From Patescibacteria group bacterium (GTDB lineage Bacteria > Patescibacteriota > Patescibacteriia > Patescibacteriales > UBA12465): a DNA stretch of 64,000 nt. How positions within the stretch are numbered: position 1 is the stretch's first letter; the number at the start of each line of letters is the position of its first letter. The stretch lies in the NCBI GenBank assembly GCA_041658665.1, contig JBAZZR010000001.1, positions 128,576 through 192,575 on the forward strand. Reading direction: 5' to 3'. Both the position numbers and the translations under genes were made by a program. Under the pieces are notes generated by a model. It was not told the origin of the DNA. It did no database searches and saw only the letters and a program-made list of their open reading frames with translations. Shown here in pieces: positions 2 through 24,351 of this stretch.

Positions 2-3000
2 TCTGATGAAGGTTGCAGCGAGCTTATGCGCGTTAAGTCGACTTGGGGTAGTAATTTAGTGATGGCGGCTGATTTTCGCTATGACGAAATCGGCGACTCT
101 AACCAGGGAGGAGATATGTTAAATAGCTGGCCGCTTATTAATAATCAAACAGCAACTATTGTCAGCGCCGCCGCAGAGTCTATTCCGGAAGGAGATAAGG
201 TTTTAAAACTGACCGCCACGCCGGCCGCGGCAAAAGCCGGAATAAGTTCTAGCGCTGTGCGTTCTTTATTACCAGCCGATTTTCAAATTATTCCCGGTCA
301 GGCCTATGCTCTTAGTGCTGATGTTTATTTAGTGAGCGGCAGCGAAGTCGAACTAGCTTTAGGTTCGGCGGCGGCTGGTTTTAGCACGACTACGCCGCTT
401 AAAAATTCTTGGCAACATTTAAGTGTTGTCCGCCAGGCGGAAAACGGTTATAACGAACCTGATTTTAGCATCGTCGGTTATGGACCCGAAGTTTTATTCT
501 ATTTAAAAAATGTAAAATTTGAATTAAGTGAATGGGCGACGGGATTTTCTCCTTATGGTTCGTTTAAAACTTATGAGAAATTATTACCGCCTTATTTAGA
601 AGCTAGTTGTTACGTCGATACGACGGCCGCCCTCAAGGATTATAGCTTAAAGTCGAACGCTCCAGCGGTTTGTAATAAATATGCGCGTAAATGTAATCAA
701 GAAGAGGTTGGTTGCGAACTATTTAGTTCGGTTAACGATAAATTTTCGATTCCGGCTAAGGTTATCAGTAGTGATTACTGTCGCGATGCGTGTTTAGGTT
801 ATGACGCTTATATTTCTAAAACTAATTATTTTAATTCACCTTACTCAGAAAATTTAATTCCGGCTAATTCGACGAGTTGTAGCGCGGAGGCGGCGGGCTG
901 TAATGAGTTTACTAATTTAGATGAATTATCGCAGGGAGGAGAACAGCGCGAATATTATACGTCTCTTAAACAATGTATTAAACCAAATCCTGACAAATGT
1001 GCAGATTTTTATTCTTGGGAAGGTCAGGCTGACGGGTATCAATTACAAGCTTATTCTTTAGCTAAGAAGACGGACGGTTCTTTGGCCGTTGCTTCAAATA
1101 GCGGGGCTTTATGTGACGCTACTACTTATAATTTAGTGCCGGATGATCCGCGCTACAACGCTGATTGTCGGCAATTTTATAACGTGGCCGGCCAAGATTT
1201 TTATCAATTAATGTCGAATACAATTACTTGTTCGAATAATTGTCACACTTATCGACTAAGCGAAAAAAATATTGATTCTACTATAATGGCGTCGAGTACG
1301 TGTGTCAGCAGTAGTCGGCATTGGGACGCTAATACTAATAATTGTTATTCTTGTTTGAACGGCGGTTTATGGGACAGTCAACATCAGGCCTGTATTTATC
1401 AAGCTATTCCCGGCGAAGGGAAGACTTGTCAGGCGAGTGATAATGGCTGTCGGGAATATAACGGCAATAACGGCAGTAACGTTCGAGTAACGGCTGTTTA
1501 TGATTTTGAAAATAATTTAAGCGATTGGTCGTCTAATTGTTCGAGCGGCGTAAGCTCTAGCACGATTTCTAATAGTAAAGATGGTCATTCCTTATGGTAT
1601 CATGATACGAATTATGGTAGATGCAATACAATTGGTAGCCAGTCGTCCGCTTCGTATACTTCCTTAAATTTTCCGTTAATTAAGAAGATTTTGGCCGGTG
1701 AAAATGTGGCGGCTCAACATTCTATGGCTAATATTGCCCGGGCCGGTGCCGCTTATACGGTTAAATTTATCGCTCGGGCGGCCGTTAACACGAATATAAA
1801 AATTTATTTCTTCAATAATGATTCGGCGACTCCCGCTAAAACTTATTTTAACGCTTCGGGCTCTTTAATTATAAAAGGGGGGAACGGCTGGAATGTTTAT
1901 CAAGCGAATTTAGCTAATCTCGATCATGCTATCGGCCCTAAAGAATTATTAGTTATTAGCGCGGATAGTGATTTTTATTTAGATAATTTTGTTTTATCGG
2001 AAATTACTGATCGTTATTATTTAATTAAAAATTCGAGCCAAGTACCCGCGGTTTGTTCTTATGATATTTTTAATACCTATCAAGGCCCGGAATATAATTT
2101 AGGCTGTTCGCAGTATACCGATCGAAACGGCTCAAAGCATGATTTAAATCGTTTTAACCAGCTTTGCGCTAGCTCGGCGGTCGGTTGCGAGCAGATGATT
2201 GATACGAGGAATTCTACCGACTATCGAACCAATTTTTGGTTCGACCGCCAAGCCACGACTACTTGCGCTATTAGCGATCCTAATTGTGTTAAAGTTGAAG
2301 GCGATCGAGCGCTTTATGCCGTTTATGACGCTAATAAACAATGTGGGGAGGTTAATAAGGGTTGTAGCCGTTTAGGCCAAGGGCAGGGCGGCGCGCTAGT
2401 TTCTTCTTGGTTAGATTTTTATGGTTTAAATAATCCTGATCAGTATACTAATATTTTATGTAGTCAAAAGAACGCTGGTTGTGAAGAATGGCAGAGCGAC
2501 AATAATAGTAAAAGTTATTTCAAAGATCCTGGGGCCGGGACTTGTAATTATCGCAACAGTAATAATCCGGCGGTTGTCGGTAAGGCTTGGTATAAAATCC
2601 CGGTTAAACGCTGTGATCGGAATAATAATAGTCAAATAGATGGTTCAGAAAAAGGGAGTCCCATTTGTCTTAGCGATAGCGACTGTAGCGTGGGCAAATG
2701 TTTAATTGATAATAATGATTATCTTTGTTCGACTTCGTATTTAAAAACTATCGGTTTAGGCGGAGCGAATAATCAAGTTCCGACGCCGGATAAAGACGCC
2801 GGGCTTTGTAATGGTAACCAGGCGGGCTGTCAGGAATATATTGATCCCGTCAGTCGTTTCTCCGCTAATTTAGTTAATAATCCGAGCTATAAAAAGGGTA
2901 GTGATAATATTATTGTCGGCTGGGGTCCCTCGATTAATAAATGGCCGACAGCAGTAGCTGCCGACCAGCAGGTTATTCGTTTAGAGCCGAATAAATTATA

Positions 3001-6000
3001 TAGCTTCAATATTAACGTGAGTACTAATGCGGTAGCGAGTCCAGTAGAATTAACTTTCTTAGACTCGGTTCGTCTTTTACAAGCTGATAATAATTTTAGT
3101 GCCCCCGCTAGTTCTTTATTTATTAATAGCGCGAGCGCGGGCGGCATTAATCAACCCCTAATTTTTAATTCTTTGAATAATAAATTAGCTCTAGTGAGCT
3201 ATGGTAATAATCAGAAGAATATTGAAGTTAAGGAGCTGGCGATTAATTATCAATTAGCTAATAGTGTTGATAAAGAGACTTGTGAAAACGTGAAGTTTGA
3301 TAGTGGCTGTGTCTTGTTTAATGAGCGGGCGATTGCTGGCGCGTCGGGATTTACTCCTTTAAGTGCCGATGCTTATAATACGCCGGAAACTGCGAATGGT
3401 TCGCCAATACAATCTTGTACCGCCCCTTATTGTCAAGCTAATCAATTAATTAAAGTTCATCCGGATAGAGTTTGCGCGAAATGGTTAGACTGTCTTACTT
3501 ATTTTAAAGACCCGTCGACGCAACAGAAAACTTGTTATTCTTTCGGACAATGCGACCGTTTAGACGATCAAGGCGAATGTTCTAATTTTATCACCAATGT
3601 CTCGGCGGACAGTAAATTTAATGTGCAAAATGATAAAAATGCTTCCGGGTACGCTTTAGCCGACAGTTATAATTTTAGCACGATGAAGGAAGTCGGCTCG
3701 AAAATTTCTGGGTTTAATGCTTATGATTTTGAAGGGAGCGATCCGGCCTTCCCGAAAGAATGTGCGACTACGGTAGATTTTGTCTCTAGCGAATCTTGTG
3801 AAGGTTGGGATAATCCGGACAGATCTAATTCCGCTAAAGTAATTAAAGAACCGAAGGGAGCGCCGACTGATTATCCGGCGGAAGGATCCGCTTACTTACA
3901 AGTTCCGGCGCGTCTCCAGCTCGGTCTTTTAGCGGCGAATTCGCCGCTAACAGTTTTAAGCAGCGGTGATAATTTTTACCTTCGTTATTTAATTAATACA
4001 AAAAATTCTAACGGCCTTAAGACAAAATTAATAATTACTGACGAGAATAATGTTGTTTGGAAGGATAGTAATAATCAGCCTCTGGTTTTTTATGCCGATT
4101 CGCCTAAAGGTTGGACGCGGGTGGTTAAACGTTTTAATTTAGGTACGGGGGTTAAACAAATAAAAATATTTTTAAGTTCTAATACGCAGGACTCTAAAGA
4201 CAGTAGTTCGGTATATTTTGACGATATAACTATTGAACCGGTTCTAGACATGGGTAATAATAACTACGCCGCGCGCGACTGCCGTCTATATCCGGCCGGA
4301 GATAGTTTAGCTTGTATTAATACGGATAATAATGTTATTAAAAATGGTTTAGAAGGATATTGTCTAAAATATGATCCCGCTAATCCTCGGGTTTGCTTAT
4401 TATGGTACCCGATGGATAGAATCGCCGGCGCTACTGATAAATTAAGTGTTTCCGGCTATCAAGGAAAGTTCCCGCTTAATTATTGTACTGAAGCGAATGG
4501 TAATTTTCAGGTGGTGGAGAAGAGAACGCAGTATTTAGACAGCGCTTCCAAGGCTTATAGCGGTGACTGTCAAAATGCTGGAGAAGCTAACGATGGGAGA
4601 AAAAATGATTATAATAGTTGTAACGGTAATAATAATTACTGGAAATTATATTTTGAATTTAGTTGCCATGAAGGTAATGATTGTTGCCATACAGAATGGT
4701 GTATACCAAAAACTAGAGGAGAGATTCAAGCCATGGCTTATCATAACACTAACTTCCATACACCCACGATTACACATGATTTTGGCAATTTAGAGGGTTC
4801 TACGGGAATATATGATAGCAGTACGCCCATGCCTGAATATAACGATATTTTTGGTGAATATGTTAAATTATACCTTAATTTAAAAAATGATGTACAGCAT
4901 AACTCCAGCGGTTGGTACTATCCGTTTAATGGTTTTTCGGGTAATGAAGGAGATTCCCCTATACGTATTTATGACCCGACAAAAAATCCTGTGACTGAGG
5001 CGGATTTAAATTATCTTCCCAATGACACCAATGCCAATAACCCTTATCGTTTAACTTGTAATCGGTTTACCTCCGTAGTTGATAATAACGGCGACAATAA
5101 AGCTTGGGTCGGGCGCGTATCTACTCCTACTACGGTCACAACTACGCCAGCTTTCTTCTATAAAGAATTTTCTCAGTGGCCGTCTGGTTTACTATTCTCT
5201 TCTTATTTAGCCTATCATTATAACCGTGAAGTCGGCGATATCCCTTTCGGCGCCGCGAGCTGGCCGACTAATTTTAGTTTGCAGAATAATAATTCTCGGG
5301 TTAATTTGCGGGCGAAAGGGGATTCTAGCGAGGATCCGGCGGCGGGTCGCCCTTATGGTTGTAGCGGGCCAAGTTGTAATATGATTGGCTCTTGTAGCAA
5401 TAATCCGAATATTTATTGTTTAGCGACTTCGTCGGATAATAATTTTTTAGCCGATGAAACTTGCGGCGGCGGGACTGGTCGGTGTATTCGTTTATGGGAG
5501 AAAATAGGTATAGTCGGCGGTTCGATACCGAATTATTCTCAAACGCAATATCTCTTAGCTAATGTTTTCTTAAAGTCTAATAGCTCTTATTCATTTAATA
5601 CCGGTTTAAATAAGTATTTGGTTGATAATTCTTCTTTCGATTTTAGCAGTAGCATTAGCCAATGCGTGGATAATATTCGCGACAAAGGCGAGCCTAATAT
5701 TTTCTGTGTAGTTTATCCGACCTTAAGTAATGTTAGTTTGTACTATGGCGATAATAAGGAACCGATAAATCCGATTAATCCCGGCGATATCTTTAATATT
5801 TCTCAGCGAGGTATATATCGCTTGGAATTTAATACTTCCGTCGATTCGGAACAGCTGCCGCTTAAACAGATTGATATTGACTGGGGCGACGGCAATACCC
5901 AGATAATTAATGACCAGGATCAAAAGCCCGCCGCCGCCGCGCCGCATTCTTTATATCATTATTATCGTGAGGCTGGATCAAGAACGATTAAGCTTAAAAT

Positions 6001-6043
6001 TACGGATAACTGGGGGAAATATGATGATAGTTATAATGATTAA
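2..6043 (+). CDS. Giant Cys-rich secreted/surface protein, 5'-truncated by the window edge, with a C-terminal PKD-like domain
   Basis: Uninterrupted 2005-codon ORF. The frame stays open upstream of the first ATG: nt 2-25 read SDEGCSEL, matching the recurring x-G-C-x-E/x-aromatic motif (VGCELF, AGCNEF, NGCREY, VGCEQM, AGCEEW, AGCQEY). The true start is therefore probably off-window. The C-terminus has a PKD-type signature (IDIDWGDGN...HSLYHYY...IKLKITDNWG). Confidence 0.8.
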   Translation, partial: SDEGCSELMRVKSTWGSNLVMAADFRYDEIGDSNQGGDMLNSWPLINNQTATIVSAAAESIPEGDKVLKLTATPAAAKAGISSSAVRSLLPADFQIIPGQAYALSADVYLVSGSEVELALGSAAAGFSTTTPLKNSWQHLSVVRQAENGYNEPDFSIVGYGPEVLFYLKNVKFELSEWATGFSPYGSFKTYEKLLPPYLEASCYVDTTAALKDYSLKSNAPAVCNKYARKCNQEEVGCELFSSVNDKFSIPAKVISSDYCRDACLGYDAYISKTNYFNSPYSENLIPANSTSCSAEAAGCNEFTNLDELSQGGEQREYYTSLKQCIKPNPDKCADFYSWEGQADGYQLQAYSLAKKTDGSLAVASNSGALCDATTYNLVPDDPRYNADCRQFYNVAGQDFYQLMSNTITCSNNCHTYRLSEKNIDSTIMASSTCVSSSRHWDANTNNCYSCLNGGLWDSQHQACIYQAIPGEGKTCQASDNGCREYNGNNGSNVRVTAVYDFENNLSDWSSNCSSGVSSSTISNSKDGHSLWYHDTNYGRCNTIGSQSSASYTSLNFPLIKKILAGENVAAQHSMANIARAGAAYTVKFIARAAVNTNIKIYFFNNDSATPAKTYFNASGSLIIKGGNGWNVYQANLANLDHAIGPKELLVISADSDFYLDNFVLSEITDRYYLIKNSSQVPAVCSYDIFNTYQGPEYNLGCSQYTDRNGSKHDLNRFNQLCASSAVGCEQMIDTRNSTDYRTNFWFDRQATTTCAISDPNCVKVEGDRALYAVYDANKQCGEVNKGCSRLGQGQGGALVSSWLDFYGLNNPDQYTNILCSQKNAGCEEWQSDNNSKSYFKDPGAGTCNYRNSNNPAVVGKAWYKIPVKRCDRNNNSQIDGSEKGSPICLSDSDCSVGKCLIDNNDYLCSTSYLKTIGLGGANNQVPTPDKDAGLCNGNQAGCQEYIDPVSRFSANLVNNPSYKKGSDNIIVGWGPSINKWPTAVAADQQVIRLEPNKLYSFNINVSTNAVASPVELTFLDSVRLLQADNNFSAPASSLFINSASAGGINQPLIFNSLNNKLALVSYGNNQKNIEVKELAINYQLANSVDKETCENVKFDSGCVLFNERAIAGASGFTPLSADAYNTPETANGSPIQSCTAPYCQANQLIKVHPDRVCAKWLDCLTYFKDPSTQQKTCYSFGQCDRLDDQGECSNFITNVSADSKFNVQNDKNASGYALADSYNFSTMKEVGSKISGFNAYDFEGSDPAFPKECATTVDFVSSESCEGWDNPDRSNSAKVIKEPKGAPTDYPAEGSAYLQVPARLQLGLLAANSPLTVLSSGDNFYLRYLINTKNSNGLKTKLIITDENNVVWKDSNNQPLVFYADSPKGWTRVVKRFNLGTGVKQIKIFLSSNTQDSKDSSSVYFDDITIEPVLDMGNNNYAARDCRLYPAGDSLACINTDNNVIKNGLEGYCLKYDPANPRVCLLWYPMDRIAGATDKLSVSGYQGKFPLNYCTEANGNFQVVEKRTQYLDSASKAYSGDCQNAGEANDGRKNDYNSCNGNNNYWKLYFEFSCHEGNDCCHTEWCIPKTRGEIQAMAYHNTNFHTPTITHDFGNLEGSTGIYDSSTPMPEYNDIFGEYVKLYLNLKNDVQHNSSGWYYPFNGFSGNEGDSPIRIYDPTKNPVTEADLNYLPNDTNANNPYRLTCNRFTSVVDNNGDNKAWVGRVSTPTTVTTTPAFFYKEFSQWPSGLLFSSYLAYHYNREVGDIPFGAASWPTNFSLQNNNSRVNLRAKGDSSEDPAAGRPYGCSGPSCNMIGSCSNNPNIYCLATSSDNNFLADETCGGGTGRCIRLWEKIGIVGGSIPNYSQTQYLLANVFLKSNSSYSFNTGLNKYLVDNSSFDFSSSISQCVDNIRDKGEPNIFCVVYPTLSNVSLYYGDNKEPINPINPGDIFNISQRGIYRLEFNTSVDSEQLPLKQIDIDWGDGNTQIINDQDQKPAAAAPHSLYHYYREAGSRTIKLKITDNWGKYDDSYND

Positions 6044-6123
6044 TTAGACCTTTGGTTTTAGTAGCGGATCCCAGCCGTTTATTATATAATTTAAGGGGAG
6101 AAGATTTAAGACGTATATTAATT

Positions 6124-6744
6124 ATGAGTATTGACGATCGGTTGTTACAAGCTAACCCAGCCGCTTCTAGAGGCGCTAATAGTAAGGATAGTTCTGGTCG
6201 GTCGGGAGAGTTAAGAGCTAATCGTCGGCGAACTAGTCAAGCGAATAAAGATACAGAACGGGCCGTAGATTTTCGCACGAGAATTCAAGCGGCGAAAAGA
6301 GAGAAACAGAAGCAAGAAGCTAAAGAAACCCAAGAGGGGGGCGGTAGCCTCGGCGCTATATTAGCTTCACCGGCGAAAAAAGTAACTTCTAATTTATTAC
6401 AACAATCCTGGGTGAATATCTTCTCGAGTTGGGGCCTAACACTACTTTGGATAAATTGTCATGTTTTTTTACATAATATAATACCGAGTCTATTTTGTAA
6501 GTTAGGCGATGAATGTAAGCCAGAAAATTGTGGCTCAGCTAGCATGACTAATCTTTTTCTTCAGACGATCTTCGGAAAACATGGTTTATCAGAGCCGATG
6601 GCCTTAGCAGTTATTGACGGGATCGCTTTACTAATTTTATTTTCCCTATTTTGTTTAGTGGCTTTAATCGTTGGTTTTTTTAGCAATCCCTTCGAAGCGA
6701 TTGTTAGTATCTTGAAAGATATCGTTGGTAATATGTGGAAATAA
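6124..6744 (+). CDS. Hypothetical membrane protein (basic N-terminus, hydrophobic C-terminal segments)
   Basis: ORF track 6052-6744 begins at a TTG. The first in-frame ATG is 6124 (MSIDDRL). C-terminal hydrophobic stretches WGLTLLWINCHVF and ALAVIDGIALLILFSLFCLVALIVGFF. The start is uncertain. Confidence 0.5.
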   Translation: MSIDDRLLQANPAASRGANSKDSSGRSGELRANRRRTSQANKDTERAVDFRTRIQAAKREKQKQEAKETQEGGGSLGAILASPAKKVTSNLLQQSWVNIFSSWGLTLLWINCHVFLHNIIPSLFCKLGDECKPENCGSASMTNLFLQTIFGKHGLSEPMALAVIDGIALLILFSLFCLVALIVGFFSNPFEAIVSILKDIVGNMWK

Positions 6745-6792
6745 TTTATTGAATATTATATTTAATTTTAGAATTTTTATATTAATATCCGC

Positions 6793-9612
6793 ATGAAATT
6801 TAGGAGTCATAAAAAATATTTAATTTTGTTAGTCGGTCTTTTAGTTATATCGGGAGTTTTTGTATTCGGTCATTTGACTAGCGCCTCAACTACTTGGGCT
6901 GAGGATGTTATATCCGGAATTTTAGGTATTTTTGTTTGGGCTTTAGGCGGAATTTTATCTTTAGTAATTAAAGCGCTCTTAGCCGTTGCTCAGTACCAGG
7001 AATTTATTAAAGTCCCGGTGGTAGAAAAAGGTTGGGTTATTGTTCGAGATCTCTGCAATATGTTTTTTGTGGTCGTTCTGATGGTCATTTCTTTCGGGAC
7101 GATTTTGCATTTAGAGGAATATAGTTATAAAAAATGGTTGCCTAAGTTAGTCCTAATGGCTGTTCTTATTAATTTTTCGAAAACTATTTGCGGGCTGTTA
7201 ATTGATGTTTCGCAAGTAGTCATGTTAACTTTCGTTAACGCGTTTAAAGATATCGGCGGTGGTAACGCGACGGAGATGTTAGGAATAACGAGTATTGTAA
7301 CCGCTTCTCAGGGGAATTTAGAGAGCGCTTTTAATACGGCGGGCGCCTATGTTTTAGGGATAATTTATTTATTAGTAGCGATTGTAGTTTTTGGAACGAT
7401 GGCGATGATGCTCGTTATGCGTCTAGTTATTATTTGGATATATGTTGTTTTATCACCTTTCGCCTATTTAATGTCGGCTTTTCCCGGCGGGCAAAAATAT
7501 GCTTCGCAGTGGTGGGATGAATTTATTAAGAATTTAATCGTCGGTCCGGTTTTGGCTTTCTTTATTTGGTTGTCTCTTGCCGCTTTACAGACCGGTAATA
7601 ATATTACCGTTGATGATAACGGGGTTTTCGGTACGGCCGGTTCTACTACCGCCGCGCTCGTAAAGTTTATTGTCGCTATTGGGATGCTCGTTGGTGGCCT
7701 AACAACAGCCCAGCAAATTGGCGGCAAAGCCGGTAGTATCGCGGGCAAGGGGATGGCTAAATTACAAAAGGGAGCGGCTTTTGCCGGTGGTTTAGCAACG
7801 GGAGCGGCGACTGGTCTTAAAAAATGGACAGGAAACAGGTTGGGAGATATTAGAGATGTTACTAGTGAAGCGATAGGGGTTGATTTAAATGTTGCCGCGG
7901 CCTGGAAAAGACGGAATGAGCAGGCGGAAGCTAATCGTCAGTTGCGCTTACAGCGTATCCGTAAAGGAACTTTAGAGACGGCGACGGGAGAAATGCGGCC
8001 AGACGGTACTCGACCCGGTTGGCTTCATCGTAAGGCCGCCTTAGCTAGCACTGGTGACGTGGCTTGGCAGAATTTAGCTGATAAAAAATTTGGTATTTTT
8101 AAGGCGGGATCGCCTAAGGTAGCAGAGGAAGCTTTGGCAAAGATTAGAGAAGCGGAAGAGGGTAAGGCCGAAGCTCAGACTGATATTGAAGATATGAATG
8201 GTCAGTCTTCAAGAATAACCACCGTTGCCGAACATCAAGCAGACCTTGGTCGGGCTAAGGAGCTAGAAGCTTCTAATATTAAACTAGATAATGATAAGCG
8301 AGCGATTGTCGAATCCAAAGAGTATATTGGTTTAGAGCAAAAGCATAAAGACGGTCTGTTAACTAAAAAGGAGCAAGAATCTTTAGATGAAAAACGCTCG
8401 GTTATTGAGGGTATTGACGCTAAGATTGAAGAAAATGATAAGGAAATAACATCCATACAACAGCCGACAGTAACTTTAGAGCAAGGTCAAAAAGAATCAG
8501 TTACTATTAAGCAATTAAGGGAAAATAATACTAGTTTAAACAAGAAAAAGTCAGATATTGTAGATAGTAAGGTTTATCAAGATTTAGAGACAAAAGAGAA
8601 AAAGAAAACTCTAACTATTGCTGAGAGAAAAACTTTAAAGGAAAAACGCGACGAGGTAGCAGCGGCTGACGCTCAGTTAGAAACAAACAATAAGGAAATA
8701 GAGACCTTGAGTAGTCACCGTATTCTAGTTGATGATGATGCTAAAAGAGAAGATGTTCGCAGAGGACTCGCCACTGCTATCAGTAGTAAAGAAAGTAAAT
8801 TAGAAGATTTTGATAAGGAAATCTTTAAGCAAACTGAAATTTTGCAGGAGAATAAATTATCGGAAACTGAAACGTCGCGGGCGCATGTTGACTCAACGAT
8901 AGAAGCGGAAGCTAATAAGAAGATCGCTACTTTTACTAATCCGGATCAATTAGTCGCTATATTTAAAGAAGCGATTAAAGCTAAAGATCAGGGTTTAATT
9001 GCGGCCACCTATAAAAAATTAACTAAGACCGGAAATTATAATGATGTTCATCGGGCGTTAGGTATTGGTACAGGTTATGATGGTATGATTACCATGTCTA
9101 AATATTTGCAAGAGGAGGGCGGCTTTAGTCAGCAAGATTCGCGCGGTTTGATCGCTGAAGTCGGAGAAATCGCCAAGTCGGTCAATCATTACGAGGCCTT
9201 TGGCGCTATGACTATGAATAAAGCAGGCCAATGGGAGGAGACTGGCAAAGATCAACAGGAAGCCTCTATCCTTGGTGAAAAATCTAAGATGCAAGTTCAG
9301 CAATTTGTCAGAAACGTTAATCGTTTAGGACAAGGGTCTTATCGTAATGGTCAGCCGCATACTGATTCCAATTGGGAGCTTAGCCGATCGACTATAGCTT
9401 TATATGCTTCTAAGGATGAAAAATATGCCGAGGAAATGTCGAAAACTGGTAATATTAATAGTATTCAGTTTATCGGCGCTAACGCAGAAAACATTCAGAG
9501 GTTGAGAGACGCCGGGGCTAAACAGGTTGCCGATGTCATTGAACGTATCATGAAGAAAGCTAAAAACATAAATGTTGCTGATCCGCTTAATGCTATTCGA
9601 GAGGTCTCTTAA
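6793..9612 (+). CDS. Polytopic membrane protein, VirB6/TrbL-like N-terminal domain plus a long charged coiled-coil-like C-terminal region
   Basis: 939-aa ORF. About eight hydrophobic segments in the first ~330 aa, then a K/E-rich repetitive region. It sits in a genome that also encodes PrgI-like and VirB4-like genes. The family call rests on architecture only. Confidence 0.45.
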   Translation: MKFRSHKKYLILLVGLLVISGVFVFGHLTSASTTWAEDVISGILGIFVWALGGILSLVIKALLAVAQYQEFIKVPVVEKGWVIVRDLCNMFFVVVLMVISFGTILHLEEYSYKKWLPKLVLMAVLINFSKTICGLLIDVSQVVMLTFVNAFKDIGGGNATEMLGITSIVTASQGNLESAFNTAGAYVLGIIYLLVAIVVFGTMAMMLVMRLVIIWIYVVLSPFAYLMSAFPGGQKYASQWWDEFIKNLIVGPVLAFFIWLSLAALQTGNNITVDDNGVFGTAGSTTAALVKFIVAIGMLVGGLTTAQQIGGKAGSIAGKGMAKLQKGAAFAGGLATGAATGLKKWTGNRLGDIRDVTSEAIGVDLNVAAAWKRRNEQAEANRQLRLQRIRKGTLETATGEMRPDGTRPGWLHRKAALASTGDVAWQNLADKKFGIFKAGSPKVAEEALAKIREAEEGKAEAQTDIEDMNGQSSRITTVAEHQADLGRAKELEASNIKLDNDKRAIVESKEYIGLEQKHKDGLLTKKEQESLDEKRSVIEGIDAKIEENDKEITSIQQPTVTLEQGQKESVTIKQLRENNTSLNKKKSDIVDSKVYQDLETKEKKKTLTIAERKTLKEKRDEVAAADAQLETNNKEIETLSSHRILVDDDAKREDVRRGLATAISSKESKLEDFDKEIFKQTEILQENKLSETETSRAHVDSTIEAEANKKIATFTNPDQLVAIFKEAIKAKDQGLIAATYKKLTKTGNYNDVHRALGIGTGYDGMITMSKYLQEEGGFSQQDSRGLIAEVGEIAKSVNHYEAFGAMTMNKAGQWEETGKDQQEASILGEKSKMQVQQFVRNVNRLGQGSYRNGQPHTDSNWELSRSTIALYASKDEKYAEEMSKTGNINSIQFIGANAENIQRLRDAGAKQVADVIERIMKKAKNINVADPLNAIREVS

Positions 9613-9642: not shown

Positions 9643-10590
9643 ATGGCCACTCTTACTCTAGAATTATTACAACAAGAAATAGAATACGCCGCCCTTAATA
9701 ATGATTGGGCGGGGGCTTTTGAAGCCTATAATATTGTTCGTCGCTGGTTAAAAGAGAATGACCTGGCTAAAAATAACCCACGAGAGTATAATCAGTATTT
9801 AAATTATGCCATGAAGTTAAAATTTTTAGCTCTTAATTATTTTGATGATGTTAACGAATATCACGATTTGTTAAAAAATTATTTTTCACTTTCTCAAGAA
9901 ATACCTGATTTTGATCTTTGGTCTAAATTAGAAGTCCAACTAATAACTCTCAAGAATATTAATGAGCGTGATACTTTTAAGAATAAATTAAGAGAAGCTC
10001 TGGAAAAATCCGATAATTTATTGATTGGCCGTCGAGCGGAGACTGATGATAGTAACGCGCCGCATAAGGTAAGCGAATGGATTAAAGATTTTGTAGTTAA
10101 TTTAGGATTAGATAGTTTTGATAAGCTCAAGAAAATGGAGTATATTGCTAATGGTAAGTATATAAAAAGATTAACAGAGGAAGAGAAGAATAAGGTAAGA
10201 AATTTGTTGGATGTTTATGAAAAATTAAGATTTTCTTCTAAAACTCCCGCCGGATATGAAAATTCTGTGGTCATGAATATCGACGGTAAAACAATTATTT
10301 TCAACCATGGTGAAATGGAGGAGGTATCTAAAGATTTTCTTAAACAAATTCAAGATAAAAAGATTAGTCCTCAGTCTCAAGATAATTTATTAATTAATAG
10401 TCATCTCGATCAACTAGCGCCAGCGCCGTCGCCGTCCGCAGAATTTTTAGCCAATCCTTTAGCCGAACTCGAACAAGTCCTGCAAAATTATTCCCCCGGC
10501 AGTCTCGAATATAAGGCGTTAGGCCAAGAAATCAGTCGTTTAAAGAAGGCGGAATTAAGACAGGCTCAAAAATCCGATGCGCTCAAATAA
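9643..10590 (+). CDS. Hypothetical cytoplasmic protein
   Basis: 315-aa ORF, same strand, 30 nt after the previous gene. No motif recognised. Confidence 0.6.
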   Translation: MATLTLELLQQEIEYAALNNDWAGAFEAYNIVRRWLKENDLAKNNPREYNQYLNYAMKLKFLALNYFDDVNEYHDLLKNYFSLSQEIPDFDLWSKLEVQLITLKNINERDTFKNKLREALEKSDNLLIGRRAETDDSNAPHKVSEWIKDFVVNLGLDSFDKLKKMEYIANGKYIKRLTEEEKNKVRNLLDVYEKLRFSSKTPAGYENSVVMNIDGKTIIFNHGEMEEVSKDFLKQIQDKKISPQSQDNLLINSHLDQLAPAPSPSAEFLANPLAELEQVLQNYSPGSLEYKALGQEISRLKKAELRQAQKSDALK

Positions 10591-11536
10591 ATATTCGAAC
10601 TTAATAGTCTCAGGCTCTTTAGCCTATGACCAGATTATGGATTTCTCTGGTCTTTTTTCTAATCACATCCTGCCAGAGGCTATCCATAAATTAAATCTGA
10701 GTTTTATTCTCAATAATTTAAGGACCAGTTTTGGTGGCACCGCCGGTAATATTGCTTATAATTTAACTCTATTTAAAGAAAAACCGATCGTTTTAGGCAT
10801 AGTTGGTTCGGATTTTGTTCCTTATGCCCAGTGGCTCGAGAAACATGGGGTTAATTTGCATTATTTAGCTAAAGTGGCTAAAGTTCATAGTGCCGCCGCT
10901 TATATTATTACTGATCATAATGATAATCAGATTGCCGCTTTTTATCCCGGTCCAACTCGCTTAAATTATGGGCGGACTGTCGCTTTAAAATTTAAGAAAA
11001 ATGATTTAGCGATTATTGCTCCCGAAGATAAAAACCGGATGTTAGAATATGCCGCTATTTATCAGCAGAAAAAGCTTGATTATATTTTTGATCCCGGCCA
11101 AGCGTTAGGCGCCTTTTCCGCTTCGGAGCTCAAGAAAGCGATTCCGGGAGCGAAAATTTTAATCGGTAATGATTACGAAATCGAAGTTATTCTTAATAAA
11201 TTAAAAATTGATCAGGCGGCGCTTAGAAGAATGGTCGACATTTTAGTAATAACTAGAGGTGCTAGAGGTTCGGAAATTTATCAGGGAACTAAAAAAATAT
11301 TAGTTAAAGCCGCTCGGCCGAAAAATACGAGCGATCCGACCGGCGCCGGCGACGCTTATCGAGCGGGTTTTATTAAAGGTTTTATTCTCGACTTTGATTT
11401 AAAAATTTGTGGCCAAATCGCTTCTCTCGCCGCTGTCTATACGGTAGAAAAATTTGGGACGCAAACTCATAAATTTACGCTGGGGGCTTTTAGAAAAAGA
11501 TACCAGGAAAACTTTGGAGAGATTTTAAAAATTTAA
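10577..11536 (+). CDS. PfkB/ribokinase-family kinase, probably a nucleoside (adenosine) kinase
   Basis: GGTAGNIAYNL near the N-terminus and PfkB signature DPTGAGDAYRAGF near the C-terminus. It lies directly upstream of ahcY/metK, which suggests adenosine removal (inference). Confidence 0.75.
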   Translation: MRSNKYSNLIVSGSLAYDQIMDFSGLFSNHILPEAIHKLNLSFILNNLRTSFGGTAGNIAYNLTLFKEKPIVLGIVGSDFVPYAQWLEKHGVNLHYLAKVAKVHSAAAYIITDHNDNQIAAFYPGPTRLNYGRTVALKFKKNDLAIIAPEDKNRMLEYAAIYQQKKLDYIFDPGQALGAFSASELKKAIPGAKILIGNDYEIEVILNKLKIDQAALRRMVDILVITRGARGSEIYQGTKKILVKAARPKNTSDPTGAGDAYRAGFIKGFILDFDLKICGQIASLAAVYTVEKFGTQTHKFTLGAFRKRYQENFGEILKI

Positions 11537-11548
11537 TTTGTTAAAAAT

Positions 11549-12805
11549 ATGATAAGTCACGTTAAAGATTTAAAACTGGCGGCCTTAGGCGAGAAGCGTT
11601 TGGCTTGGGCCAGTCGGGATATGCCGGTTTTAAATATTATTAAGGAAAAATTTAAGAAAGCGGAGCCCTTTAAGGGAAAAAGAATTTCTGCCTGCATGCA
11701 CGTGACTGCGGAAACAGCTAATTTAATGTTAGCTTTAAAGGCCGGCGGCGCAGCCGTTACTTTAGTCGCTTCTAATCCTTTATCAACTCAAGACGATATC
11801 GCCGCGGCGCTCGTAAAAAATCATGGCTTAAAAGTAATGGCGATTAGAGGCGAGGATAATAAAACTTATTATACTCATCTTAATCAGGCTTTAAAAAATA
11901 AACCGCAAATAACGATGGATGACGGGGCGGATTTAATTTCGCTTTTACATAATCAATATAAAGAGCAAGCTCCAGATATTTTAGGCAGCCTGGAGGAAAC
12001 AACGACTGGTGTTCTTCGTCTCCGAGCTTTAGCGGCGGCCGGCAAATTATTATTGCCAGTCGTGGCTGTTAATGACGCTAAAACTAAGAATTTGTTTGAT
12101 AATCGCTACGGGACAGGGCAGTCGACTTTAGACGGTATTATTCGAGCGACAGGCATTTTAATTGCCGGCAAGAATATTGTTGTGGCCGGTTACGGCTGGT
12201 GCGGTCGCGGTTTTGCGACGCGGGCCAGAGGAATGGGCGCTAAAGTTATTGTGACGGAAGTTGATGAGATTAAAGCTTTAGAAGCGGCCATGGACGGTTT
12301 TAGCGTTATGACGATGAAAGAAGCGGCGAAGGTCGGCGATGTTTTTTGTACGATTACTGGCGATATTAAAGTTATTGATCAAAATCATTTTAAATTAATG
12401 AAGGACGGCGCTATGCTTTGTAATTCCGGACATTTTGATGTTGAGATAAATATTCCGGCTTTGAAAAAATTAGCCAGTCGGGTTAATTATCAAATTAATA
12501 ATAATGTTGATGAATATTTCGTGGGTAAAAAGAGGATTTATGTTTTAGGCGCGGGGCGTTTAATTAATTTAGCGGCCGCGGAAGGTCATCCTTCGAGCGT
12601 CATGGATATGAGTTTCGCGACTCAGGCTCTCGCCGCTCAGTACGTCGTAAAAAATGCCGGCCGCTTAAACGCCCAGGTTTATAATGTTCCGGAGAGTATC
12701 GAAAAACAAGTGGCGACTTTAAAGCTTAATTCTTTAGGGTTAAAAATAGATAAATTAACGAAAGAACAGGCGGCTTATTTAGCGTCTTGGGAACTAGGGA
12801 CTTAA
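11549..12805 (+). CDS. ahcY: Adenosylhomocysteinase (S-adenosyl-L-homocysteine hydrolase)
   Basis: 418 aa. [14 protein letters not shown] signature, NAD-binding [12 protein letters not shown], and a GHFDVEI motif. Confidence 0.92.
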
Positions 12806-12869
12806 ATTTTATTTGATTGTTTTTATTAATTATTTCTATTAATCTCTGCTACCCGAGCGGAACAAAAAT

Positions 12870-14021
12870 ATGGATATTAAATTAATTACTTCTGAGTCAG
12901 TGACCGAGGGTCACCCAGATAAAGTTTGCGATCAAATCAGCGACGGTATTTTAGACGAGATGTTGAAGAAAGACCCTTTAAGCCACGCCGCGGTCGAATG
13001 TTTCGTCACTAACGGTTTAGTCGTTGTCGGCGGCGAAGTTAGGACTAATTGTTATGTGCAAGTTGATGATTTAGTGCGCAAGATTTTGAAGAATATCGGT
13101 TATAATGGAGCGGAATCGGGTTTTGATTGTGATAGCGTCGGAATCGTTTCTGCCTTGCATGCGCAGAGCGCGGAAATCGCTCAAGGCGTCGATGAAGGGG
13201 CAGGTGATTATAAAGAACAGGGGGCTGGTGATCAGGGGCTAATGTACGGGTTCGCCACTAAAGAAACTAAAGAGCTTATGCCCTTACCAATCGTTTTAGC
13301 GCATAAATTAACCGCGCGTTTAGCGGCGGTTCGCCATAAAAAAATATTACCTTACTTAAAACCGGACGGTAAAAGTCAGGTAACGGTCGAGTATCGTGAT
13401 GGCGTTGCTACAAGGGTAGAGACAGTGGTTATTGCCGCCTGTCATAGCGAGCAAATAAAATTAACCAAGGTTCGAGCGGATATTTTAAATAAAGTAATTA
13501 AACCAGTTTTGGGTCGGCTACTTGATAAGAAAACTAAAGTTTATATTAATTCTACCGGCGCCTTTACTTACGGCGGACCGGCCGCCGATACCGGCTTAAC
13601 CGGTCGGAAGATTATTGTCGATACTTATGGCGGCGTCGCTCGTCATGGCGGCGGCTGTTTTTCTGGTAAAGACGCTTCTAAAGTCGACCGTAGCGGCGCC
13701 TATATGGCTCGTTATGTCGCTAAAAACGTCGTGGCGGCGGGATTAGCCGATAAATGCGAATTGCAAGTCGCTTACGCGATTGGCGTCGCCAAACCAGTTG
13801 GGATTTATATTAATACTTATGGCACTAATAAATTTTCTGAAGATAAAATATTAAGAGCAATTGAGAAAATTTTCGATTTCCGACCGAAAGCGATAATCGA
13901 CCAATTAGGTTTGAAAAAACCGATCTTCTTAAAGACCGCCGCTTATGGTCATTTCGGTCGAGCGGAGTTTTCTTGGGAAAAAACGGATAAAGTAGCGGTT
14001 CTGAAAAAAGCCGTTAAATAG
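12870..14021 (+). CDS. metK: S-adenosylmethionine synthetase
   Basis: 383 aa. GHPDKVCDQISD, GAGDQGLMYGFA and GGGCFSGKD signatures. Confidence 0.95.
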   Translation: MDIKLITSESVTEGHPDKVCDQISDGILDEMLKKDPLSHAAVECFVTNGLVVVGGEVRTNCYVQVDDLVRKILKNIGYNGAESGFDCDSVGIVSALHAQSAEIAQGVDEGAGDYKEQGAGDQGLMYGFATKETKELMPLPIVLAHKLTARLAAVRHKKILPYLKPDGKSQVTVEYRDGVATRVETVVIAACHSEQIKLTKVRADILNKVIKPVLGRLLDKKTKVYINSTGAFTYGGPAADTGLTGRKIIVDTYGGVARHGGGCFSGKDASKVDRSGAYMARYVAKNVVAAGLADKCELQVAYAIGVAKPVGIYINTYGTNKFSEDKILRAIEKIFDFRPKAIIDQLGLKKPIFLKTAAYGHFGRAEFSWEKTDKVAVLKKAVK

Positions 14022-14077
14022 GCCAGGAGTAAAAAGTGATTTTATCTTGATAATTCAAAATTAAAGCAAATTGGATA

Positions 14078-15631
14078 ATGATTATCAGGCTAAGAAATAA
14101 ACTAATGGCTAGTACTCAAAAGACGCAGAAAGTAATTAATAACTCTCTAAAAAAAGATTGGTTTTTTTTGACGGAACGGCCAGATATGCCACCTTTGCCA
14201 GTCTGGTATAAAATAAAAAATAGTGCTCTCAGCCAGCTAAATAAAGAAATTTATGGAATCGGCGTACCGTGGGCCTGTTTTTGGCATGATAATAAAGTTG
14301 AACATTACCTACATAGTCGGGAATATCGTTTCGCTATCCAACGAGCGTCCAGGATTCTTTATTCTCAGAAAAATTTAAGCGAATATTTAGTACGGTTGGA
14401 GCAATCATGTGCGCAAGTAAAAATCGCCGCGGAAAATTTTAATAAGCTGTCTGGGCGGAAATTTGATAATCAGCAGCTATTTGATAGGTATGACCAGGTG
14501 GTCGATAAATATATCATATCTTATATTTATGGTTTTTTAACTTGGTGTACCCGAGCTTTGGAGTATGATGCTAAAACGGCGATAGATAAATACGCCGAAG
14601 CTTTAAACAAGCTAGACGTCTCTTCGGACCAGGCTTTGAGCATTTTAATTGTCCCGAGCGAATTAACTCTCTATCAGAAAAAAGATAAGGAGTTGAGTAA
14701 GTTAGCTAAAGATTACCGACGCCTTCTGGATAAGCCGTCTAGCGAGAAATATATCCGTCACCATCACCCAGATTTATATGCCGCGATAAAGAATTTTATT
14801 AATAAATATTATTGGGTGGGTTTTAATTACGACGGCCCGGCTTTAAATTTTTCTACGGCGGTCAAAGAATTGTGGCAAACTCATCCTAAAGTTATTTCTC
14901 GCGTAATTACCAAGTCGGATATTTACCGCGTCTGCCATTTCACTGAAAAAGAAAAACAGTTTTTTCGGGCCTTAGAAATAATTTCTTATACTAAGGATTT
15001 ACGTAACGTCACTGATGATTATGTTCATTATTGTTTTAGCAATTTTTATCAGGAAGTCGCTAGAAGGACGGGTTTAACTAAGTCAGAAATCAAATTTCTC
15101 TGGGACGAAGAACTAAAAGAATTATTAATCGGAAAAATTAAAATTACTCACGGATATTTAAAAAAGAAACGAAAATTTTGCGCGGCAATCGCCAAGTCTA
15201 AAGCGGTAGGTTTAAAGCAATATTATCTTGGTGATCAGGCCCAGACTTGTTATAAGAATGTTTTAAAAAATAGCAATAAATCATTAAAAATTTTTTCCGC
15301 TTCGGTTATTAATGGTACCATCGCCGCTTCGGGACGCGCTACCGGAAAAGTTAAAATTATCCGTTCGGTTATTGATATTAATAAGGTTAAGAAAGGCGAT
15401 ATTTTAGTAACCAGCATGACCAGCCCGAAGTATATGCCCGCTATTTTTAACGCCGCCGCTCTAATTACTGATGATGGCGGTTTGACTTGCCACGCGGCAA
15501 TTATTGCTAGAGAAATAAGGAAACCTTGTATTATTGGCACGAAGATAGCGACTAGTGTTTTAAAAGATGGGGATTTAGTAGAAGTAAACGCCGAAGAAGG
15601 CGTAATTACTATTATTAAGAGAGGAAAATAG
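14078..15631 (+). CDS. Swivel phosphohistidine (PEP-utilizer mobile domain) protein, paralog 1 of 8
   Basis: C-terminus: KKGDILVTSMTSPKYMPAI...DDGGLTCHAAIIAREIRKPCIIGT...DGDLVEVNA. N-domain anchors KKDWFF, KYYWVGFNYDGP, TKDLRN. An alternative start is M10 (14105). Confidence 0.85.
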   Translation: MIIRLRNKLMASTQKTQKVINNSLKKDWFFLTERPDMPPLPVWYKIKNSALSQLNKEIYGIGVPWACFWHDNKVEHYLHSREYRFAIQRASRILYSQKNLSEYLVRLEQSCAQVKIAAENFNKLSGRKFDNQQLFDRYDQVVDKYIISYIYGFLTWCTRALEYDAKTAIDKYAEALNKLDVSSDQALSILIVPSELTLYQKKDKELSKLAKDYRRLLDKPSSEKYIRHHHPDLYAAIKNFINKYYWVGFNYDGPALNFSTAVKELWQTHPKVISRVITKSDIYRVCHFTEKEKQFFRALEIISYTKDLRNVTDDYVHYCFSNFYQEVARRTGLTKSEIKFLWDEELKELLIGKIKITHGYLKKKRKFCAAIAKSKAVGLKQYYLGDQAQTCYKNVLKNSNKSLKIFSASVINGTIAASGRATGKVKIIRSVIDINKVKKGDILVTSMTSPKYMPAIFNAAALITDDGGLTCHAAIIAREIRKPCIIGTKIATSVLKDGDLVEVNAEEGVITIIKRGK

Positions 15632-15642
15632 TTTAATACCTT

Positions 15643-16056
15643 ATGCGTGTCATGGTTTTTGGGACATTTGATAATTTACATCTCGGCCATTTAAATTATT
15701 TTGAACAGGCCTGGCGTTTTGGTGAGGAATTAATAGTTATAGTTGCGCGCGATCGGAATGTCTTAAAAGTTAAAGGACATTTGCCACAAGAAAGGGAAAA
15801 AATTCGTGTTCGTACTATCAGGATGGTTTTACGAAAGTCGGAAGAAAAGGCTCGGGTGGTTTTAGGGGGACTAACTAATCAGTGGCTAGTTTTAAAAAAA
15901 TATCGTCCGGAAGTAATAGCTTTAGGCTATGATCAATTAGTTGATTTAGATAAACTAAAAAGCGAAATTAAAAAATTTCGTCTTTTTTGTAAGATTAAAA
16001 GGTTAAAACCTTATTATCCAGAGAAATATAAGTCAAGTTTGCAGAGAAATAATTAA
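15643..16056 (+). CDS. Cytidylyltransferase-superfamily nucleotidyltransferase, RibL-like (FMN adenylyltransferase-like)
   Basis: 137 aa. The N-terminal GTFDNLHLGHLNYF (T/HxGH nucleotidyltransferase motif) followed by ELIVIVARDRNV closely resembles archaeal RibL-type enzymes. Confidence 0.65.
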   Translation: MRVMVFGTFDNLHLGHLNYFEQAWRFGEELIVIVARDRNVLKVKGHLPQEREKIRVRTIRMVLRKSEEKARVVLGGLTNQWLVLKKYRPEVIALGYDQLVDLDKLKSEIKKFRLFCKIKRLKPYYPEKYKSSLQRNN

Positions 16057-16063
16057 GATAATT

Positions 16064-17491: not shown

Positions 17492-17495
17492 ACAT

Positions 17496-19022: not shown

Positions 19023-19025
19023 ATT

Positions 19026-19700
19026 ATGTTGAAAGAACAATCTAAGAAAAAAATAATAATAAAACAGAGCGCATTATATGTTTGGGATTTGGCCAATACC
19101 TTGTTCCAGGAAGTTTGGAATAAAGAGAGAAGTGGTTTTGCTTCTTATAGCGATTGGTTACAGAATAAATTAGGCAAGACACTGGACCAAATTAGTCCCT
19201 GGGAATATGAGAATAATTATAAAATACCTTATTGTGCCGGTTGGTATTTTAATCTCGATATCAAACCAGGTTTTCGGCAGACTTTAGCTTGGACTAAAAA
19301 TAATGAAACATTTAGTACGGGAAACCAAGCGCAAATGACTTGGCGCGGTCGATATCTGAATAAAAAGTATAATTTTAAATTAAGTAAATATTTTAAAAAA
19401 TTGAACTCTACCTTTGATTACGGTGACGCTAACGTTAAAAGTATAGCCATGTTTAAATCTTATTTAAAAGATAAATATCGAGCAGGATATCAAACAATAG
19501 TTTATAGTGATGATAAACTAAGTAATCTCCAATTTTTTAAAGAAGCGGTCGATAAATATCAGAAGATTTTACCAGCCCTGGATCTCCGTTTATATTATGT
19601 TTTAAATAAGAGTCAGGGGATCAAGGATAAAAAGTGGTATTTCAGTGTCGGTACTTTACATGATTTATTAAAAAATGAAAAAAAATTAAAAAATAATTAA
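19026..19700 (+). CDS. Hypothetical protein, possibly HAD-like fold
   Basis: 224 aa. Candidate HAD motifs: I YVWDLANTLF (a D-x-A-x-T variant, comparable to the YihX-type DLGNV), II TFSTGN, IV VYSDDK. The assignment is weak. Confidence 0.4.
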   Translation: MLKEQSKKKIIIKQSALYVWDLANTLFQEVWNKERSGFASYSDWLQNKLGKTLDQISPWEYENNYKIPYCAGWYFNLDIKPGFRQTLAWTKNNETFSTGNQAQMTWRGRYLNKKYNFKLSKYFKKLNSTFDYGDANVKSIAMFKSYLKDKYRAGYQTIVYSDDKLSNLQFFKEAVDKYQKILPALDLRLYYVLNKSQGIKDKKWYFSVGTLHDLLKNEKKLKNN

Positions 19701-19715
19701 TTAATCAATAAATTT

Positions 19716-21813: not shown

Positions 21814-21818
21814 AAAGT

Positions 21819-22853: not shown

Positions 22854-22874
22854 AAATGTCCAGATAAAAAATGA

Positions 22875-24350: not shown

Positions 24351-24351
24351 C

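Follow-up and report, generated by a model that had tools for sequence, protein, structure and literature searches.

The question raised by this locus is whether a very large cysteine-rich protein and a set of genes resembling a type IV secretion system (T4SS) form one apparatus, or are neighbours through gene order only. The DNA analysed, called here the window, is a stretch of 64,000 nucleotides from a Patescibacteria group bacterium (GenBank assembly GCA_041658665.1, contig JBAZZR010000001.1, positions 128,576 to 192,575 of the forward strand). It begins within the gene of the large protein, referred to below as the giant, which is followed by genes for a small membrane protein and for a polytopic membrane protein of 939 amino acids. 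A sequence-only reading of the window had related the latter protein to VirB6/TrbL, and had proposed that the giant and the T4SS-like genes serve in host attachment or uptake rather than in conjugation. We read the region as half of a chromosomal T4SS-like apparatus of the kind known from Patescibacteria, in its ABY1 or 'Falkowbacteria' form. The Patescibacteria T4SS itself is already published; what is added here is the conserved giant accessory and an extended variant of VirB6, neither previously described as far as a literature search could find. A survey of these T4SS (PMC12102498) detected no adhesins and does not mention the giant family, nor does a paper on ABY1 genomes (PMC11809585), which describes other, fast-evolving giants of the FhaB type. 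We consider it somewhat better than an even chance (roughly 0.55) that the giant is the host-contacting extracellular part of the T4SS-like machine, the whole forming one integrated, non-conjugative apparatus.

Gene order around the giant in relatives

In the window the giant is represented by its C-terminal 2,013 amino acids (positions 2 to 6043, + strand), in frame 2, which is open from the first base to the stop codon. The upstream part was retrieved by way of the 939-amino-acid neighbour, which is 100% identical to WC863_00585 of NCBI from a Patescibacteria metagenome-assembled genome. The locus obtained, L001, comes from the 821,845-bp contig carrying the window, and base 1 of the window is base 3209 of L001. 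The full gene occupies L001:1101..9251 and encodes 2,716 amino acids, of which the first 703 (L001:1101..3208) lie upstream of the window, so that the earlier description of a protein of more than 2005 amino acids cut by the window edge was correct. The recovered 5' end encodes a Lys-rich stretch followed by a hydrophobic signal-type or transmembrane segment ending in VFA-Q. The NCBI model of the gene, WC863_00575, has 2,678 amino acids, 38 fewer than the ENA call, and thereby loses the signal segment; the start at L001:1101 is likely the correction.

The giant contains 92 Cys (3.4%), nearly all of which are invariant in alignments of 17-73 homologues. The spacing C-x6-C occurs 14 times against 3.1 expected, with a maximum of 9 in 2,000 shuffles, and GC-x-[EQ]-[FWYLM] occurs 8 times against 0.09 expected; the repeated Cys motif of the sequence-only reading, x-G-C-x-E-aromatic, is therefore real, in the form C-x6-C-x-E-aromatic. 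Complete homologues are about 2.4-3.1 thousand amino acids long and show 40-88% identity over the full length. An exhaustive search placed 630 clusters at 50% identity in the family with E <= 1e-3, and 304 with E <= 1e-30. No family of Pfam or NCBIfam was found above threshold with the giant, either whole or in ten pieces, and the family profile gave no significant match in the PDB.

Gene order was compared in 80 species-level loci around relatives of the 939-amino-acid gene, on each of which the cluster proteins were mapped. The common order, all on the same strand, was KsgA, a thrombospondin-type-3 (TSP3)-like protein, the giant, the small membrane protein, the VirB6-like protein, a 315-amino-acid protein, a 479-amino-acid protein, PrgI, TrsD, VirB4, a membrane anchor and RadA. 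Of the 53 loci with at least 9 kb of upstream sequence, 42 had the giant gene before the VirB6-like gene. VirB4 followed within 10 kb on the downstream side in 41 of 48 loci, and PrgI was typically 5.0-5.9 kb from the VirB6-like gene. Both the giant and VirB4 were present within 22 kb in 30 loci. The same order was found in loci reached independently through distant homologues of the giant, and the adjacency is kept where identity of the giant drops to about 26-33%. The sequence-only reading had made its proposal depend on synteny of the giant with secretion genes in relatives, and such synteny is what these counts show.

The separation of the giant from the remaining T4SS-like genes by 22 kb, which the sequence-only reading had noted, is present in the window and does not hold as a general layout. 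In the window the junction between the 315- and 479-amino-acid genes is occupied by a block of about 20 kb (10577..29972) with PfkB, AdoHcyase, MetK and an expanded array of PEP-utilizer paralogues. Many lineages have nothing at this junction, and some have about 4-5 kb there, typically PfkB, AdoHcyase, MetK and a cytidylyltransferase, with PPDK_N in some of them. The closest relatives of the window genome likewise have no VirB4 in the 10-kb flank. Since the cluster is contiguous in most relatives and the content of the junction varies by lineage, the separation is a secondary, lineage-specific interruption by metabolic genes.

The distal part of the cluster contains the recognizable T4SS genes. 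The earlier assignment of PrgI-like, VirB4-like and anchor proteins at 31.5-35.2 kb on the same strand held, with PrgI and VirB4 above curated cut-offs and the anchor bitopic. The PrgI-family protein (31507..31932, +), VirB3-like and with two transmembrane helices, matched PF12666 at E = 5.8e-8 (33.6 bits against a cut-off of 27). It is followed by a 226-amino-acid open reading frame (ORF) for a TrsD-like, stand-alone VirB4 N-terminal domain (31943..32623, +; TrsD, E = 5e-8), to which VirB4_plasma of NCBIfam also matched at profile positions 92-248 (E = 3e-12). The VirB4-type ATPase of the CD1110 family (32629..34530, +) matched NF045971 at E = 1e-106 (358 bits against 325), carries the Pfam P-loop_TraG domain and was found with PrgJ of plasmid pCF10 in tblastn (E = 2e-36). 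VirB4 is thus made of two ORFs, the TrsD piece and the ATPase body, 5 nucleotides apart; the same split occurs in 51 of the 80 loci and is therefore not a frameshift artefact, and a separate TrsD has been reported for Patescibacteria T4SS (PMC12102498). The anchor (34577..35206, +), a bitopic protein of 209 amino acids from its ATG with an N-terminal transmembrane helix, was found in 41 of the 80 loci. It probably starts at ATG 34577 and not at TTG 34496, which removes an overlap with VirB4. It is possibly PrgL/VirB8-like: it shares size, topology and position with PrgL of pCF10, to which it aligned weakly in hhalign (E = 0.006, 66 columns, 6% probability), and its sequence profile found no match in the PDB. 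The context gene RadA/Sms (35232..36578, +; Pfam) follows immediately, as it does after the anchor in 40 of the 80 loci, and RecG (Pfam) lies close to it.

No relaxase or VirD4-type coupling protein had been noticed in the window, and this was borne out. None was found by Pfam among window ORFs of at least 340 amino acids, and tblastn with TrwB, PcfC, TrwC and PcfG (sequences of R388 were from NC_028464) gave no match in the window, in L001 or in the 80 related loci. PrgJ, the positive control of these searches, gave the VirB4 match cited above in the window and matched 48 loci. The set of VirB4, TrsD, PrgI and VirB6-like proteins, the missing relaxase and the radA/recG context together match the chromosomal T4SS known from ABY1-class Patescibacteria (PMC12102498).

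Domains of the VirB6-like protein and of the giant

The 939-amino-acid protein (6793..9612, +) consists of three parts. Residues 1-333 (6793..7791) form a polytopic membrane domain with about eight hydrophobic helices, and residues 1-340 are the best conserved part of the family. Residues 367-699 (7891..8889) make up a variable coiled-coil region containing two repeats of about 85 amino acids; these tandem repeats (residues 471-640, 8203..8712) are visible by eye and as an 84-residue period in the strand positions of the AlphaFold2 model. The last part, residues 700-939 (8890..9612), is a conserved globular alpha/beta domain with predicted local distance difference test (pLDDT) values above 90. 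Relatives of the protein, in over 1,242 clusters at 90% identity and at least 563 species-level genomes, are 808-1,051 amino acids long, a range that possibly arises through the number of repeats. All informatively named relatives are Patescibacteria, and many others bear generic or evidently wrong bin labels.

An AlphaFold2 model built from a 115-sequence alignment had a pLDDT of 86.9. When it was compared with the PDB by Foldseek, ranks 1-7, 10 and 11 were TrwI/VirB6 chains of the R388 T4SS, with probabilities of 0.9-1.0, E = 0.01-0.7 and about 195-280 aligned columns, and no protein other than VirB6 exceeded a probability of 0.4. TrwI (PDB 7o3v, 8rt9, 8rtd) thus ranks first as a structural match for the N-terminal part of about 330 residues, and nothing else matches credibly. 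It is likewise a polytopic inner-membrane protein, and its conserved P...[KR][FY]..xW region aligns with that of the family. It differs in having 342 amino acids and no large cytoplasmic domain, and in belonging to a diderm MPF-T system in which it works with VirB5 and VirB2. At the sequence level, Pfam TrbL matched 5 of 45 family members at E < 0.01 (best E = 4e-4); on two members scanned separately it covered profile positions 2-190 of 215 with 16.6-17.5 bits. The NCBIfam family CD3337/EF1877 'mobilome membrane protein' matched the 939-amino-acid protein below threshold (E = 4.7e-4). An hhalign comparison with the TrwI family aligned the signature region alone, pairing SPLAYLLAAFPGGQKYASQWW of the family with GLGPLFILALLWQPTRRFFEQW of VirB6. 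PF19590, presumably TrbL-like, appeared as a precomputed match on about 10 family members. The protein has at least five transmembrane helices, its top fold matches are VirB6 and its gene is linked to PrgI-TrsD-VirB4 in most relatives, and it is very probably a subunit of the VirB6 type. Of the sequence-only description, the polytopic domain, the extension of about 600 residues and the kinship with VirB6 in a structure search stood, while the sequence scores remain below threshold.

Hydropathy and the positive-inside rule favour eight transmembrane helices with both termini inside, which would make the extension cytoplasmic. No match by fold or by sequence profile was found in the PDB for the coiled coil and the C-terminal domain. 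VirB6 proteins with large additional parts are exemplified by the RvhB6 paralogues of Rickettsia, TraG of the F plasmid and TcpH of Clostridium perfringens. The 939-amino-acid protein resembles such proteins in joining a VirB6-type polytopic domain to a large hydrophilic C-proximal domain, a likeness of concept, and so fits the published notion of an 'extended VirB6' bearing extra domains of no known role (PMC12857230).

The giant, as reconstructed from the full gene, starts with a signal peptide. A conserved region of about 650 residues without an assigned fold follows, and in the remainder jelly-roll or beta-sandwich modules, four or five in number, alternate with Cys-rich linkers. The first module (residues 740-885, 110..547, +) is of jelly-roll type and resembles a carbohydrate-binding module (CBM). 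It matched GTA_spike_fiber of NCBIfam at E = 3.7e-5, below the cut-off of that family. Pfam CBM_4_9 matched 14 of 17 family members, with a best E of 4.5e-13, and the copy in the window at E = 0.053 only, which is under the Pfam cut-off. The second module (residues 1195-1372, 1475..2008, +) was assigned from a CBM-like sequence pattern and a weak match of the family profile to the CBM4 of laminarinase 16A (1gui; E = 0.98). The third and fourth modules (residues 1655-1790 and 1935-2118; 2855..4246, +), which a Cys-rich linker separates, are beta-sandwiches in the AlphaFold2 model md52417092409, with pLDDT of about 65-89. This model covers the last 1,200 residues and was based on an alignment of 28 sequences, with the N-terminal 700 residues outside it; its mean pLDDT is 60.5, with the beta-sandwiches well formed. 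In Foldseek it matched CBM16, CBM22, CBM4 and CBM6 with probability 1.0, target-normalised TM-scores of 0.45-0.59 and E = 1e-4 to 1e-3. As the Foldseek output gives no query ranges, we infer that these matches belong to the third and fourth modules of the model. By the profile match in the family and the modelled jelly-roll fold, the giant is predicted to carry modules of the CBM_4_9 type, which may bind sugar. The modules differ from known CBM4, CBM9, CBM16 and CBM22 in that no glycoside hydrolase accompanies them and in being set between disulfide-rich linkers. When hidden Markov models were made from the individual putative jelly-rolls, none of them picked up the other modules, so these are not recent repeats.

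A further beta-sandwich (5720..6040, +), with the motif WGDG...HxY...DNWG and pLDDT of about 65-85, closes the protein. It had earlier been called PKD-like, a label that found no support. The predicted strands and the motif are all that spoke for it. Pfam PKD_4 reached E = 0.04-0.09 on the giant C-terminus (13-14 bits against a cut-off of 27) and matched 1 of 24 family members at E < 0.1; the profile of the C-terminal family found no PKD-containing chain, and nothing else of significance, in the PDB, and no PKD structure was among the top 50 Foldseek matches of the model. A PKD domain (PF00801 or PF18911) was accordingly rejected, there being no significant profile or structure match.

The proposed apparatus and competing explanations

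Patescibacteria possess chromosomal, relaxase-poor T4SS derived from the monoderm MPF-FATA type (Quinonero-Coronel et al. 2025, PMC12102498), and PMC12857230 cites Wang et al. (2023, Cell) for chromosomal T4SS of this phylum. In class ABY1 they lie next to radA, recG and comF (PMC12102498). The cluster in the window resembles these systems in its monoderm-type VirB4, separate TrsD, PrgI/VirB3 and probable VirB6 homologue, in the possible VirB8-like protein, a component that is rare and found mainly in ABY1, and in the same chromosomal arrangement without a relaxase and with radA and recG adjoining. It differs in being headed by a conserved secreted protein of 2.7 thousand amino acids, where published descriptions report no adhesins, in having an 'extended' VirB6, and in being split by about 20 kb. 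A similar order is known from pCF10 of Enterococcus faecalis, in which the adhesins PrgA, PrgB and PrgC are followed by PrgH (VirB6-like), PrgI (VirB3), PrgJ (VirB4), VirB1 and PrgL (VirB8-like). Unlike the window, where none of these was found, pCF10 has the coupling protein PcfC, the relaxase PcfG and the hydrolase PrgK. PrgB, an LPXTG-anchored adhesin of 1,305 amino acids, has no similarity to the giant, and PrgH has 266 amino acids and no profile similarity to the 939-amino-acid family.

In the apparatus that we propose, the VirB6-like domain would form a membrane channel or platform, and its coiled coil and globular domain, together about 600 residues, would project into the cytoplasm and dock the ATPase or receive the substrate. 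Reception of the substrate by the extension is suggested because no coupling protein is present. The bitopic anchor may play the part of PrgL/VirB8 outside the membrane. The giant would leave the cell by means of its signal peptide, owe its stability to about 46 disulfides, and serve as an extracellular arm which binds a glycan on the envelope of the host (or of the cell itself) and holds the channel against the partner cell, a position and role analogous to those of the PrgA/PrgB/PrgC adhesins at the head of the pCF10 operon. The secretion signal, the disulfide content, the CBM-like modules and a DsbA-like gene near the cluster in 15 relatives would fit such a glycan-binding role outside the cell. 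The strong conservation of the giant suggests a machine part or the recognition of a conserved ligand, not a diversifying adhesin.

The machine would exchange material with the host or take it up, with nucleic acid as the leading guess, rather than conjugate plasmids; this direction is favoured because relaxase and coupling protein are absent, radA is conserved and recG is nearby. A T4SS-based import of DNA is known from the ComB system of Helicobacter. Taken with this analogy, the missing coupling protein and relaxase and the RadA neighbour make it reasonable to guess that nucleic acid of the host is taken up. A 2026 preprint (10.64898/2026.06.21.733656) proposes acquisition of host RNA and shows possible T4SS pili by microscopy. 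The attachment or uptake role of the sequence-only reading thus remains one that we infer, in agreement with the view of Patescibacteria T4SS as relaxase-less and repurposed (PMC12102498). A more far-reaching version appears doubtful to us: that the giant is an integral extracellular T4SS subunit of a new class which replaces the pilus or adhesin and bridges to the host, that the cytoplasmic domain of VirB6 is the substrate receptor, and that the machine imports host DNA or RNA, with the DNA handed to RadA. Patescibacteria, which depend on host cells, are estimated to account for a large part of bacterial diversity. In the one genetically tractable member the T4SS-like system is essential (PMC12102498, PMC12857230); the epibiotic growth of Southlakia cannot do without it (reviewed in PMC12857230). 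The giant is a concrete candidate for the missing extracellular part of such systems, tied to VirB6-VirB4 genes across hundreds of species, and the conserved cytoplasmic domain on VirB6 is a candidate for the missing substrate receptor.

The proposed apparatus has to be weighed against the possibility that only the 939-amino-acid protein and the downstream genes form a T4SS-like machine, the giant (with the TSP3-like protein) being an independent envelope or adhesion protein that is their neighbour through conservation of gene order in the clade. On this view the giant might be a surface adhesin that binds glycans, or a structural protein of the S-layer kind, and we regard this as a tentative second explanation. 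Several observations speak for it or weigh against a single apparatus. What ties the giant to the machine is gene order alone; no similarity of the giant to known T4SS components was detectable in the Pfam, NCBIfam and PDB profile searches; and in 11 of 53 loci, generally the more distant ones, the T4SS genes stand without a giant within 10 kb upstream. The conserved neighbourhood also holds the housekeeping genes KsgA, upstream, and RadA, downstream, and tolerates the insertion of 4-20 kb of metabolic genes in its middle, so that collinearity may not mean common function. ABY1 genomes are known to encode large exoproteins that have no relation to T4SS (PMC11809585), and the model of the giant is poor and leaves its N-terminal 700 residues uncovered. 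Against independence stands the persistence of the adjacency at low identity of the giant and in loci found through its distant homologues, and in split clusters the giant gene remains together with the genes for the small membrane protein, the VirB6-like protein and the 315-amino-acid protein. Its length and Cys are unusually constant as well, which is more in keeping with a machine part than with a fast-evolving adhesin of the FhaB kind. The FhaB/DUF2341 giants of Patescibacterium danicum (PMC11809585) are, like this one, very large predicted surface proteins of the same class with a proposed role in host adhesion; they are without full-length homologues and seemingly fast-evolving, whereas the family described here has constant length, 40-65% identity and invariant Cys across hundreds of clusters, and no FhaB domain. 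The integrated apparatus is given no more than the probability stated at the outset, and the independent surface protein is kept as its alternative, because the link is genomic only and housekeeping genes share the neighbourhood.

The identity of the membrane protein is a separate matter, and bears on the proposed apparatus too. If the VirB6 match were a generic resemblance of helical bundles, the 939-amino-acid protein would be an unrelated polytopic protein with a coiled-coil tail, such as a transporter or a scaffold. At the sequence level, indeed, no VirB6 signal reaches the family thresholds: TrbL (PF04610) scored 6.6 bits on the window protein (E = 8.1, gathering threshold 25.9 bits) and reached E < 0.01 only in the few members mentioned, the hhalign alignment to TrwI extended over 45 columns with E = 0.098 and 0.6% probability, the comparison with PrgH gave nothing, and the family profile found no VirB6 chain in the PDB by sequence. 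The structural matches, with E of about 0.01 at best, had target-normalised TM-scores of 0.33-0.46 and a root-mean-square deviation of about 10 Å. The proposed topology is also open to objection, as residues 179-228 are one long helix in the AlphaFold2 model and a single crossing there would flip it. An unrelated protein is nevertheless unlikely, since 9 of the top 11 Foldseek matches are VirB6 and no other membrane protein approaches their probability, three independent sequence methods point to the same segment and family type, and the PrgI-TrsD-VirB4 cluster has no other VirB6 candidate in most relatives. Conjugation was considered as well, with the genes as an integrated conjugative element, the giant as a mating adhesin and the machine transferring DNA. 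VirB4, PrgI and TrsD are of the types that occur in Gram-positive conjugative elements, the gene order is like that of pCF10, and a serine recombinase and phage-like genes are present at 41-52 kb. We judge this highly improbable, as neither the window nor the 80 related loci contain a relaxase or coupling protein, the GC content of the cluster is not distinct from its flanks, the recombinase region is a separate low-GC island at least 5 kb beyond RecG, and relaxases are rare in Patescibacteria (PMC12102498). The context of KsgA upstream and RadA downstream is common to many species-level genomes, which argues that the cluster is vertically inherited and not mobile.

Further genes of the cluster and its surroundings

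The small membrane protein which the sequence-only reading had placed after the giant is a conserved protein of 206 amino acids (6124..6744, +) with a charged N-terminus, two transmembrane helices and a Cys-containing loop. It likely starts at ATG 6124 and not at TTG 6052, and its gene adjoins the VirB6-like gene in 63 of the 80 loci. It showed no similarity to the VirB2 pilin TrwL, to Pfam families or to PDB chains, and as there was no signal of any kind its candidacy as a VirB2 pilin was rejected. A non-exhaustive test revealed no VirB2-like pilin in the window. The conserved soluble 315-amino-acid protein (9643..10590, +) follows the VirB6-like gene and occurs at the same position in 50 of the 80 loci. 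The conserved 479-amino-acid protein (30059..31498, +), which has helical ends, a Pro-rich middle and no transmembrane helix, was found in 54 of them, directly before PrgI. Neither of the two matched Pfam or the PDB. Scans for promoters and terminators gave results at the level of shuffled sequence and were uninformative.

Upstream of the giant, L001 encodes a membrane-anchored protein of 217 amino acids with Asp-rich thrombospondin-type-3-like repeats, preceded by KsgA. A DsbA/thioredoxin-like protein of 247 amino acids is encoded near the cluster in 15 of the 80 loci (tblastn). In two relatives a stretch upstream of the giant, on the - strand (L084:1258..7192 and L085:1408..7435), carries the DsbA-like gene; two Cys-rich proteins of 346-415 amino acids with precomputed T4SS_pilin (PF18895) matches are interleaved there with subunits of pyruvate:ferredoxin oxidoreductase. 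No homologue of these T4SS_pilin-annotated proteins was found in the window. In L084-L086 the junction between the 315- and 479-amino-acid genes holds a Fic/RhuM gene instead of metabolic genes.

The array within the junction of the window consists of eight tandem ORFs of 475-517 amino acids, all on the + strand, which start at 14078, 16064, 17496, 19716, 22875, 24352, 25795 and 27249. Each has a PEP-utilizers 'swivel' domain at its C-terminus only (E = 1e-22 to 1e-27). A cytidylyltransferase, a HAD hydrolase and two ORFs without a match lie between them in the segment 14078..29972, and a single, separate PPDK_N ATP-grasp protein (29034..29972, +; Pfam) follows the array. The whole looks like a split and multiplied system of the pyruvate phosphate dikinase or phosphoenolpyruvate (PEP) synthase type. 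Relatives carry fewer copies of the PEP-utilizer ORF.

Several of the related loci are labelled Candidatus Falkowbacteria, the NCBI label that was used in PMC11809585 to pick out contigs of its ABY1 genomes. Many other related contigs, L004, L005 and L013 among them, bear the title 'uncultured Gammaproteobacteria bacterium' (from binchicken or SRP co-assemblies) in the database, and one is titled 'Planctomycetota'. Since they carry a cluster of the Patescibacteria type, these bins are probably mislabelled.

The low-GC island (0.31-0.35) extends over about 41000..53300 of the window. It contains a pair resembling a type III restriction-modification system, an N6_N4 methylase at 41055 and a ResIII helicase at 42937, a large serine recombinase (45886..47169, -) and a terminase-large-subunit-like protein (47293..48759, -). 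A second methylase, an S24 LexA/CI-like repressor at 51098 and a RusA resolvase at 52745 are also found in it, and the island is probably an integrated phage or the remnant of one.

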